NCBI GenBank assembly: GCA_038897215.1
Contig: JAWAWX010000001.1
Location: 832,001 to 896,000 of the forward strand
From: Acidilobaceae archaeon
GTDB taxonomy: Archaea; Thermoproteota; Thermoprotei_A; Sulfolobales; Acidilobaceae
Direction: 5' to 3'
Length of the DNA: 64,000 nt
In this document: positions 1 through 16,327 of the stretch, in pieces
Layout: every line of letters begins with the position of its first letter
Position numbering within the stretch: position 1 is the first letter of the stretch
Translations under genes and position numbers: made by a program
The notes under the pieces: generated by a model
Seen by the model: only the letters and a program-made list of their open reading frames with translations
Told to the model about the DNA's origin: nothing
Database searches by the model: none

Positions 1-41
1 AGGAGCAGGACCTGACGCGTGATGAGCTTGTGTGCTCCTGA
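1..41 (+). ncRNA. Box C/D guide sRNA, 5'-truncated by the window edge (candidate)
   Basis: Guide AGGAGCAGGAC, D' CTGA (12-15), C' GTGATGA (19-25), 12-nt guide GCTTGTGTGCTC, D CTGA (38-41). Spacing is canonical; the C box would lie just upstream of base 1. Confidence 0.6.
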
Positions 42-4937: not shown

Positions 4938-4987
4938 TCAGAGGATAGTCGGTCTTCACCGTGTCAGCGTCGCTCCACCCTCCTCAC
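4938..4987 (-). ncRNA. Box C/D guide sRNA targeting the 16S rRNA decoding region
   Basis: C GTGAGGA, guide GGGTGGAGCGACG, D' CTGA, C' GTGAAGA, guide CCGACTATCCT, D CTGA; 50 nt. The D' guide is the complement of CGUCGCUCCACCC in the crenarchaeal 16S consensus. Confidence 0.9.
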
Positions 4988-13983: not shown

Positions 13984-14450
13984 GCGAGCCAGGAGATATA
14001 GTGGACAAGCTCTTCAAAGCAGAGCTAAGGTATGTGAACAAACACCTTCCCGTAGCGCGCAGAAGCCTAGAGGAGCTCCTCAGCGACCCTCTACCCTGTG
14101 TTCTGCTAAGAGATGGAGGCAAACACTGCTTCAAGAGGAGAGAGCTGGAGAAGCTAGCTGGGCAACTAAGCCCCGAGGATAGGAGGAGACTCTTACTGCC
14201 TATAATCATCCAAGCGAGAAGAGGGGAGAGAGAGCCTCAGTTCGTGGTCGAGGGTCTACTGGAAGCGATAGTAGTTGAGACTCTGCTCGGGCAAAGTCTA
14301 GGAGCTAGAGAGAGAGGCTTCCTAACCCTCTATCCTCTACAAGTGCAAGAACTTCTATCCAGATACCCTACCCTCTTCCAGACCACAGTAGCTCCTCCTG
14401 CCTCGGAGATAGTTGAAGAAGATTTCGGAGAAGTCTCGAGATATGCTTAG
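13980..14450 (+). CDS. DUF61 family protein
   Basis: NKHLP..RRSL.ELL...RDG..H.F...EL, LPII. Confidence 0.8.
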   Translation: MSEPGDIVDKLFKAELRYVNKHLPVARRSLEELLSDPLPCVLLRDGGKHCFKRRELEKLAGQLSPEDRRRLLLPIIIQARRGEREPQFVVEGLLEAIVVETLLGQSLGARERGFLTLYPLQVQELLSRYPTLFQTTVAPPASEIVEEDFGEVSRYA

Positions 14451-15010
14451 AGGAGTTCGAAGAAGCCTCCTGCGCTATGCTGTCTTATCTTCAGCTCGCT
14501 GAGCCTCCTATCGAACTCGCGAACCCACCAGGGGACTCTTAGAGCGCTCCTCTCGACGATCCTAGAGAAAGTGTAGGGCTTTAGGTCTAGCACAGGGGTC
14601 CCGTTGTAGAGGTCGAGCCCCCTTACTCTTATCTCGCTCCTGCCTACTTCGAGTATCTCTACTATCGTTAACGCTATGGGGTTAGGTCTGTGAGGAGAGT
14701 CTGTCGCGAAAACCCCGACCTCAGGTAGCTCTTCGAGCTTGAAGCCGAAAGCAGTAAGCCTCCTAGGCTTCACGGTAAGCGTCCTCCTAGCCTCCGGGGG
14801 GGTTTTGTGCAGGCAGGCTATCACTATGAGGTGGGAGAACTCCTCGAGCCCCCTTAGCCCGCTAGAGTACTCATCGAAGACTACTATGTAGCCTTCTACG
14901 CCGAAGAATGAGGACCTAACCTCTTCATCGCTAGCGTCCGTCTTAACGAAGCCTATAGGCTGGAAGCACTCGCAGCCACGAGTCTCTTCAGCATTGCGAC
15001 ATCTCATCAC
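14447..15010 (-). CDS. tsaA: tRNA (t6A37-N6)-methyltransferase TrmO/TsaA
   Basis: PIG.V, GL.GLEEFSH, GVFATDSPHRPNPI, GLD..NGTPVLDLKPY. Confidence 0.92.
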   Translation of the reverse strand: MMRCRNAEETRGCECFQPIGFVKTDASDEEVRSSFFGVEGYIVVFDEYSSGLRGLEEFSHLIVIACLHKTPPEARRTLTVKPRRLTAFGFKLEELPEVGVFATDSPHRPNPIALTIVEILEVGRSEIRVRGLDLYNGTPVLDLKPYTFSRIVERSALRVPWWVREFDRRLSELKIRQHSAGGFFELL

Positions 15011-15035
15011 AAGTCAGCACCCTAGGGCTCAACAT
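14988..15035 (-). ncRNA. Box C/D guide sRNA overlapping the tsaA start codon
   Basis: C ATGTTGA, guide GCCCTAGGGTG, D' CTGA, C' GTGATGA, guide GATGTCGCAATG, D CTGA; 48 nt. Confidence 0.8.
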
Positions 15036-15124
15036 CGAGTCTTACTCTAAGCTCTCTCCTCCAGTCTCGAGAAAAGCTAGAACAGTTTTTAGCTTAGCTC
15101 TAGCAGATCACACTAGGCTAGCCG

Positions 15125-16327
15125 ATGTTCTCGATAAGCGTTTCTCAGATCGCTCGAAGCGTTTATCTCCTAAGGCTCGAAGATAGAGAGACCTCGTACT
15201 TCGAAGGATTGTGGAGGATGCCGGAAGGCATCACCTACAACGCGTACCTGGTCACGGGACCGGAGGGAGTGGTGGTCGTCGATGGGTGGAAGAGAGGCTG
15301 TGGAGAGCTCTTAGTGAACACTATCAGAGACATCGTAGACCCTAGAGACGTGAGGTTCGTGATAGCAAATCATCTAGAGCCCGACCACAGTGGCTCGCTT
15401 CCCGAGCTGGTCGGCGAGGCGAAGAACGCTGTAGTCCTAGCTCACCCGATAGCAGGGTGGATGCTTGAATCGTTCTACGGGCTCGGCTCCCGGTTTAGGA
15501 GCGTTGCCGACGGCTCGACTCTAGAGCTCTGCGGACTCAGGTTTAGATTCATACACACCCCCTGGCTCCACTGGCCGGACACTATGGTGAGCTACCTGGA
15601 GGACGAGAAGATCCTGTTCACTTGCGACATATACGGCTCCTACGGGGTCCCCTCCGCTGTCTTCTACGAAGACCTGCCCGAGGAGGAGAGAGCGCTGTTC
15701 GAGCGCTACTCCAGGAAGTATTTCGCCAACGTGATAGGAGGGTATCGAGACTGGGTGTCGAAGAATCTAGCTAAGCTCGAGAGCGTTGCCAGAGAAGCTG
15801 GGACCGTGGCGACAGGACACGGCCCCCTCTACAGAGACCCGGGCATCCCATTGAGCCTCTACAAGAGCTTGGCTTCAGAGAAGCCGGCTAAAGGTAAGGC
15901 TCTGGTTGTCTACGGGTCTATGTACGGTTTCTCCGAAGACACGGCTAGACTCGTAGTCGAGGGCTTGAAGCGCAGAGGCTTGACTGTTGTCCTCGCCGGG
16001 TTTACCGATAGGAGGAGAGACGATGAGAGCGAGATAGTGAGCGAAGCCTATGACAGCGAGTACCTTGTCTTCGTATCGCCAACCTACGAGACAGAAGTCT
16101 TCCCTCTACTACGCTATATTGTTGAACTCTTATCCCGCAAGACTCCCGCTTCGAGCAAGAAGACTCTAGCGGTTTCCGTTTACGGGTGGGCGGGAGCGGG
16201 GAGGAAGCTGGGAGAGCTTCTGGCCGGCAGCGGGTTCAGGGTAGTGGAGGTAGTCGAGATAAAAGGGTCTCCAGTCGGGTACGTTGACAAGCTAGAGAAG
16301 GCATTAGACAAGCTAGTCGAGAGCTAG
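15125..16327 (+). CDS. fprA: Flavodiiron protein (FprA, MBL + flavodoxin domains)
   Basis: GITYNAY, HLEPDHSGS, WLHWPD, TCD, GHG, YGSMYG, YGW. Confidence 0.93.
   Translation: MFSISVSQIARSVYLLRLEDRETSYFEGLWRMPEGITYNAYLVTGPEGVVVVDGWKRGCGELLVNTIRDIVDPRDVRFVIANHLEPDHSGSLPELVGEAKNAVVLAHPIAGWMLESFYGLGSRFRSVADGSTLELCGLRFRFIHTPWLHWPDTMVSYLEDEKILFTCDIYGSYGVPSAVFYEDLPEEERALFERYSRKYFANVIGGYRDWVSKNLAKLESVAREAGTVATGHGPLYRDPGIPLSLYKSLASEKPAKGKALVVYGSMYGFSEDTARLVVEGLKRRGLTVVLAGFTDRRRDDESEIVSEAYDSEYLVFVSPTYETEVFPLLRYIVELLSRKTPASSKKTLAVSVYGWAGAGRKLGELLAGSGFRVVEVVEIKGSPVGYVDKLEKALDKLVES

Follow-up and report, generated by a model that had tools for sequence, protein, structure and literature searches.

In an Acidilobaceae archaeon, the first codons of the tRNA methyltransferase gene trmO (tsaA) coincide with the C′ box of a putative box C/D sRNA. 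This coincidence raises the question of whether such a guide RNA exists at this locus, what it guides, and whether its overlap with the start codon was selected as a link between rRNA methylation and TrmO synthesis. A preliminary description of the window (the whole 64-kb stretch of DNA analyzed here) had favored such a link, proposing that one transcript yields either sRNA or mRNA and that L7Ae binding would occlude initiation.

The trmO start and the boxes of the overlapping RNA

The trmO/tsaA gene is an open reading frame of 187 aa on the minus strand (14447–15010), and its product matches TrmO_N (PF01980) with an E value of 4.6e-27 and 95 bits against a cut-off of 26.8, the PIG motif aligning with that of relatives. 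Before PIG, the only in-frame ATG, GTG or TTG codons are GTG 15010–15008 and ATG 15007–15005, both of which lie in the C′ box. The preliminary description was thus right to identify the C′ box GTGATGA with the GTG-ATG start and to find no other in-frame start before PIG; it had placed the RNA and the gene on the same strand, which is the minus strand for both and needs stating.

A box scan, the alignment with a copy in a sister species and sub-threshold Rfam matches delimit a putative sRNA of 48 nt (14988–15035, minus strand). From its 5′ end, it consists of the C box AUGUUGA (15035–15029), an 11-nt D′ guide, GCCCUAGGGUG (15028–15018), the D′ box CUGA (15017–15014), the 3-nt spacer CUU (15013–15011), which forms the K-loop spacer between the D′ and C′ boxes, the C′ box GUGAUGA (15010–15004), a 12-nt D guide, GAUGUCGCAAUG (15003–14992), and the D box CUGA (14991–14988), which the sister species shares. 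Both the D′ and the C′ box are perfect, their spacer is 3 nt long here and 4 nt long in the sister species, and both guide lengths fit the criterion of about 12 nt for archaeal C/D sRNAs. Read as coding sequence, the TGA within the D′ box (15016–15014) closes the trmO frame on its upstream side as an in-frame stop, the C′ box supplies codons 1–2 and the first base of codon 3, the D guide lies inside codons 3–7, and the D box falls in codons 7–8. The layout of the frame therefore bears out the earlier statement that the D guide and D box occupy roughly codons 3–8.

The box architecture is rare in this genome. A strict pattern (a C box with at most one mismatch, 10–13 nt, CTGA, 2–9 nt, an exact RTGATGA, 10–13 nt and CTGA) was found at 3 loci of the 1.16-Mb genome, the present feature included, and at none in a reversed-genome control; the analytic chance expectation is about 0.001 per genome. 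When up to two box mismatches were allowed, the scan returned 11 loci against 0 in the control. At gathering thresholds, the Rfam search of the 64-kb window returned two tRNAs only and did not match the sRNA. In E-value mode, eleven archaeal C/D families matched exactly 14986–15039 (minus strand), all below threshold, the best being sR5 with 27.5 bits and an E value of 1e-4 against a gathering score of 40 bits. Such sub-gathering scores are expected because C/D families are defined by their guides. The boxes align over the full length with sR5 (RF01304), sR33 (RF01120) and others at the same coordinates, but the guides differ, and the predicted sRNA is outside every curated Rfam family.

The weak point of the architecture is the C box. 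The D′, C′ and D boxes are canonical, but the preliminary description needs a correction for the C box, which matches RUGAUGA at 6 of 7 positions and carries an A-to-U change at position 4. The sister species has C at this position (GUGCUGA), and no register of the C box yields a canonical GA core in both species. All other C/D candidates in the genome retain GA at C-box positions 3–4. The A at position 4 normally takes part in one of the two sheared G·A pairs of the terminal K-turn, and without it the sRNP may assemble weakly or in an atypical way at the C/D end. No convincing terminal stem was seen on inspection of either species or in a fold of the copy from this genome. The genes for the sRNP proteins are present, with fibrillarin (PF01269), Nop5 (PF01798) and L7Ae (PF01248) all above their cut-offs.

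The relaxed scan also produced ten further C/D candidates, each with at most two box mismatches (control 0) and none found by Rfam at gathering scores. Two of them concern the window, at 4938–4987 (minus strand) and at 1–41 (plus strand), the latter beginning 8 nt before the window. The others lie elsewhere on contig C1 at 786184–786234, 831333–831381, 170263–170314, 254997–255044, 583979–584028, 1116457–1116506, 366360–366408 and 288218–288269. Position 5 of the C box is often variable in this genome (GUGAGGA, AUGAAGA). An upstream ORF of 103 codons takes its TGA stop from the C box of the candidate at 831333–831381. The sRNA with the best score in the genome, C1:786184–786234 on the minus strand (locus L103:459–707), has a C′-box GTG-ATG that opens an 82-codon ORF. 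We considered this as a second overlap of a C′ box with an ORF start and rejected it, as the ORF is of low complexity and probably spurious; the case shows how easily RUGAUGA makes apparent ORF starts.

Predicted targets of the two guides

The single 23S gene of this genome spans the contig junction (C1:1157294–1159524 joined to 1–1006), and the contig ends repeat 127 nt, which indicates a circular assembly. With the gene split over the contig ends, a search for rRNA targets on the linear contig misses domain V and with it the target of this sRNA. The 23S sequence was therefore reassembled across the junction before the target search, and E. coli numbering was checked on an E. coli rrl copy, anchored at Um2552.

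The D guide forms 10 contiguous Watson-Crick pairs with UUGCGACAUC in the genome's own 23S. An exact complement of 10 nt was equaled by 31 of 5000 shuffled guides; the duplex energy alone is marginal, its value being reached by 11 of 150 shuffles. The N+5 rule selects a nucleotide within the duplex, the G equivalent to E. coli G2494. A stronger argument for the predicted target than these shuffle statistics is the covariation of guide and rRNA between families. Position 2496 of 23S is G in this genome and in the sister species, where the guides carry C, and it is U in genomes of two other families, where the guides carry A. With both guide forms, N+5 selects the same G2494 in every genome compared. 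The D guide thus probably directs formation of Gm2494 in 23S, beside the peptidyl-transferase center. Helices 90–93 of domain V are a known hotspot of archaeal methylation (PMC7994747).

The guides of the other families belong to dual-guide sRNAs (loci L073–L090) that resemble the sRNA studied here in carrying a 10–11-nt guide to UUUGC(U/G)ACAUC, which matches each lineage's own rRNA and points by N+5 to the same G2494. They differ from it in three respects: the G2494 guide is in the D′ position, whereas here it is in the D position; the second guide is a different one (GGGGCUCU.. or GGGGCUGCUGG), pairing with 23S within about 50 nt; and none of them stands beside trmO. Loci L073–L087 come from family f5 and L088–L090 from family f2, and the f2 versions have a GC-rich hairpin of about 30 nt between the D′ and C′ boxes. 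The predicted G2494 site is conserved as a target across families, while orthology of these sRNAs with the putative trmO-linked one is unproven.

The D′ guide presents a different picture. Its best sites are LSU 2704 in the genome's own numbering, where N+5 corresponds to C2521 of E. coli, and SSU 1102 (own position), and the two score about equally. At the LSU site, the pairing comprises 8 Watson-Crick pairs, 2 G·U pairs and 1 mismatch. Dual-guide C/D sRNAs usually target neighboring sites, and the LSU site, 27 nt from the D target, would fit this habit. However, both sites were rejected as targets, since shuffled guides equaled them in 55 of 150 cases by energy and in 4429 of 5000 by exact run. 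No tRNA target was found for the D′ guide, and its sole full complement in the genome is its own antisense strand. The preliminary description had both guides pairing imperfectly with 23S and had named a D′ target there. Imperfect pairing holds for the D′ guide, at a level no better than shuffles, but not for the D guide, which is perfect over 10 nt, and the D′ target at C2521 is statistically indistinguishable from chance.

The D′ guide is nevertheless conserved at 10 of 11 positions in the sister species, and we regard it as a conserved yet effectively orphan guide as far as its predicted pairing goes. Its 11 nt (15018–15028, minus strand) hold a perfect 8-bp palindrome, CCCTAGGG, which is likewise conserved in the sister species and could serve guide-guide dimerization or act as a DNA site. 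They also hold an SD-like GGGUG (15022–15018), 7 nt upstream of the GUG, whose duplex with the anti-SD is weak (−6.3 kcal/mol).

Comparison with the sister species

The comparison genome was the only same-genus genome (locus L031, also labeled L002), and its gene order matches that of the present genome: flavoprotein, divergent spacer, sRNA, trmO and DUF61. Between them, the sRNA block is identical at 43 of 49 positions (88%), against 41 of 100 in the upstream spacer, 13 of 28 (46%) in the linker from the D box to PIG and 313 of 477 in the trmO nucleotides (protein identity, 65%). At 4-fold degenerate sites of trmO, only 22 of 58 (38%) are identical, which places synonymous sites near saturation. 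Within the locus, conservation is thus strongest in the RNA. The conservation spans all four boxes and the D guide and extends beyond the palindrome alone.

The start codon behaves differently. In the sister species, trmO has a TTG start four codons before PIG and 14 nt after the D box, with an in-frame TAA before it, and the C′-box GUG-AUG is in another frame from trmO and is closed by a stop. The sRNA there is wholly upstream of trmO. An SD-like GAGGG precedes the TTG. A TATAAG also occurs there (L031:1487–1492), but at only 3–8 nt upstream of the TTG, it is too close to be the trmO promoter. The linkers from the D box to PIG measure 28 nt here and 26 nt in the sister species. Since the start of the sister gene lies 14 nt past the D box and in another frame, the overlap is lineage-specific. 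The preliminary description had called for a comparison of boxes and codons in relatives: the boxes proved to be conserved, and the start-codon overlap did not. Taken together, the two aligned sequences argue that the sRNA is under selection and that its overlap with the start codon is not.

The protein sequences agree with a start that is peculiar to this genome. The first 15–17 residues of TrmO form an N-terminal extension encoded by the 3′ half of the sRNA and the 28-nt linker (14960–14987), and relatives align with TrmO only from residue 15–16. Start candidates lie 3–13 codons before PIG in relatives and 16–17 codons before it here, a longer distance than in any of the relatives examined. 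For annotation, this means that the trmO start call and the extension of about 15 residues are dictated by the RNA gene and not by the protein.

Upstream of the sRNA, the 114-bp divergent intergenic region contains a GCTAAAAA box (15086–15093) that is conserved in the alignment with the sister species. To judge by spacing only, this box is probably the TATA element of the divergent neighbor, a flavoprotein gene with ODP/metallo-β-lactamase and flavodoxin domains (15125–16327, plus strand; ATG at 15125) that is syntenic in the sister species; the element is possibly bidirectional. About 27 nt upstream of the C box, the sister species has a TTATAT, whereas no clear TATA box was found at the corresponding place (−27) here.

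We also searched more widely for further copies. Pattern searches across the order and the family, which covered other genera of the family, found the sRNA in this form only in the two species of the genus. Of two metagenome scans, the first gave no match, and the second gave one chance match in an unrelated AT-rich ORF. None of about 60 other trmO loci had a C/D sRNA upstream of trmO; one of them, locus L040, has a C/D sRNA about 150 nt downstream of the gene.

Origin of the overlap and known systems

Overall, we consider it quite likely that 15035–14988 (minus strand) is a genuine, previously unannotated and functional archaeal box C/D sRNA, and that its overlap with trmO is specific to this lineage and a by-product of genome compactness and of the start codons present in RUGAUGA, a consensus that itself contains GUG and AUG. 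The first part of this explanation upholds the preliminary claim of a genuine C/D sRNA, which is supported by conservation in the sister species, by the fit of the D guide to 23S and by the covariation of guide and target.

We suggest the following putative course of events. The sRNA would have stood in the 5′ leader of trmO throughout the genus, that is, in both species. Because it immediately precedes trmO in both, and on the same strand, the two are probably co-transcribed, and sRNA and trmO would come from one primary transcript. Assembly of L7Ae, Nop5 and fibrillarin would shield the 48 nt, while the remainder of the transcript is trimmed off. The proximal start of trmO may have been lost in this genome, and a 2-nt change in linker length would have brought the C′-box GUG-AUG into frame. 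TrmO would then borrow the start codon of the sRNA, its extension of about 15 residues reading through the D guide and D box, and unprocessed transcripts would be translated from the C′-box start. As a side effect, each transcript would probably become either an sRNA or a translatable mRNA, and an sRNP, or L7Ae at the K-loop, would probably lower TrmO output. The direction of the start-codon shift, and with it the question of whether the overlap was gained or lost, is read from two genomes only and may be the reverse.

An arrangement of this kind was unfamiliar to the preliminary description but is already published. Lui et al. 2018 (NAR 46:5678, PMC6009581) describe 17 Pyrobaculum sRNAs that overlap the 5′ ends of ORFs in sense (category 1), their C′ box or D guide containing the start codon; they suspect co-transcription of sRNA and mRNA and discuss interference of L7Ae, Nop5 and fibrillarin with initiation. 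According to Tripp 2017, as cited in Breuer 2021 (PMC7994747), 5′ overlap occurs in 7% of sRNA genes, and expression of a downstream reporter was reduced. In addition, L7Ae represses mRNAs through k-turns (Daume et al. 2017 mBio, PMC5539422). The preliminary remark that sRNA/ORF overlaps and L7Ae regulation of mRNAs are known in archaea is thus covered by published work (PMC6009581, PMC7994747 and PMC5539422).

The present case shares with category 1 of Lui 2018 the strand of the gene, the start codon in the C′ box and the presumed co-transcription; it is a further member of this already published class (sense 5′ overlaps) and involves no new mechanism. It differs from the Pyrobaculum cases in the order to which the organism belongs and in the gene concerned, trmO. 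Moreover, the overlapped guide has an rRNA or tRNA target in only 2 of the 17 Pyrobaculum sRNAs, whereas here the overlapped D guide has a strong, co-varying target, and it is the non-overlapped half (C box and D′ guide) that is degenerate, with an orphan D′ guide. The locus also resembles L7Ae-repressed mRNAs (PMC5539422; Huang et al. 2019 RNA, PMC6298567) in having a K-turn/K-loop at the start codon, a leader and an SD-like element. However, the published k-turns serve only as leader elements and are conserved along with the gene that they regulate, whereas the predicted motif here is part of a guide RNA, and its placement with respect to the start codon differs between the two species: the K-loop overlaps the start here, but the start of the sister gene is 14 nt past the D box and in another frame.

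An alternative to the by-product explanation is that the overlap is a selected switch, in which L7Ae or the sRNP on the C′/D′ K-loop and C/D motif occludes the start, tunes TrmO to the free capacity of L7Ae or sRNP and commits each transcript to sRNA or mRNA. The start codon does lie within a perfect C′ box, a D′ box that is also perfect stands 3 nt away, and the SD-like GGGUG of the D′ guide precedes the GUG by 7 nt. The adjacency of sRNA and trmO is conserved in the genus, and Sulfolobus L7Ae represses its own and other mRNAs via k-turns in leaders and coding starts (PMC5539422). However, the only sister species lacks the overlap, its trmO start lying 14 nt past the D box in another frame, and the roughly 60 other trmO loci have no upstream sRNA. 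The idea is also generic to all 5′-overlapping sRNAs and has already been discussed (PMC6009581). A switch of this kind would moreover connect TrmO with rRNA methylation, two activities between which we know of no functional link. We therefore consider a selected switch unlikely, and the preliminary proposal of a designed coupling device fares poorly against the sister species, whose sRNA is wholly upstream of the gene. We give similarly little credence to the more specific form in which the sRNA captured the trmO start, and sRNP assembly on a perfect K-loop beside a weak C box chooses between guide and TrmO for each transcript. If true, translation would be switched by a natural sRNP whose guide keeps its function even as it is read as codons 3–7. 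There is no evidence of a selected regulatory circuit, and the coupling is unproven.

A second alternative holds that trmO is poorly translated or not translated at all, either as an incipient pseudogene after loss of its start or because an assembly indel in the 28-nt linker hides a true start elsewhere. The unusual length of the N-terminal extension, 16–17 codons before PIG against 3–13 in relatives, would agree with this, as would the mere 2-nt linker difference that separates the frames of the two species, and pseudogene sequences may remain downstream of sRNA genes as a result of 5′ overlaps (Breuer 2021, PMC7994747). Against it, all 187 codons of the ORF are intact, the product matches TrmO_N strongly and shares 65% identity with the protein of the sister species, the linker has no homopolymer run that would suggest a sequencing error, and there is a start codon, with a weak SD, from which to initiate. 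We regard a silent trmO as quite improbable. Least credible of all, and very improbable in our judgment, is that no sRNA exists and the boxes are chance motifs or a conserved DNA element with the CCCTAGGG palindrome as a protein operator: the degenerate C box, the palindromic D′ guide without an RNA target and the lack of any Rfam match above the gathering score would allow it, but the expectation of about 0.001 per genome with a control of 0, the conservation of all four boxes and the D guide beyond the palindrome, and the covariation of the D guide with its 23S target across families speak against it.

The locus adds a putative, unannotated guide RNA for a nucleotide next to the peptidyl-transferase center (23S G2494, the predicted target) in a little-studied Acidilobaceae lineage, and the guide/rRNA covariation indicates that G2494 is targeted across several families of the order. 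The two sister species, which carry the same putative sRNA with and without the start-codon overlap, form a clean natural experimental pair. This pair could serve to test an idea that has been published but not yet tested, namely that translation is hampered when an sRNP or L7Ae assembles on a sense-overlapping sRNA.
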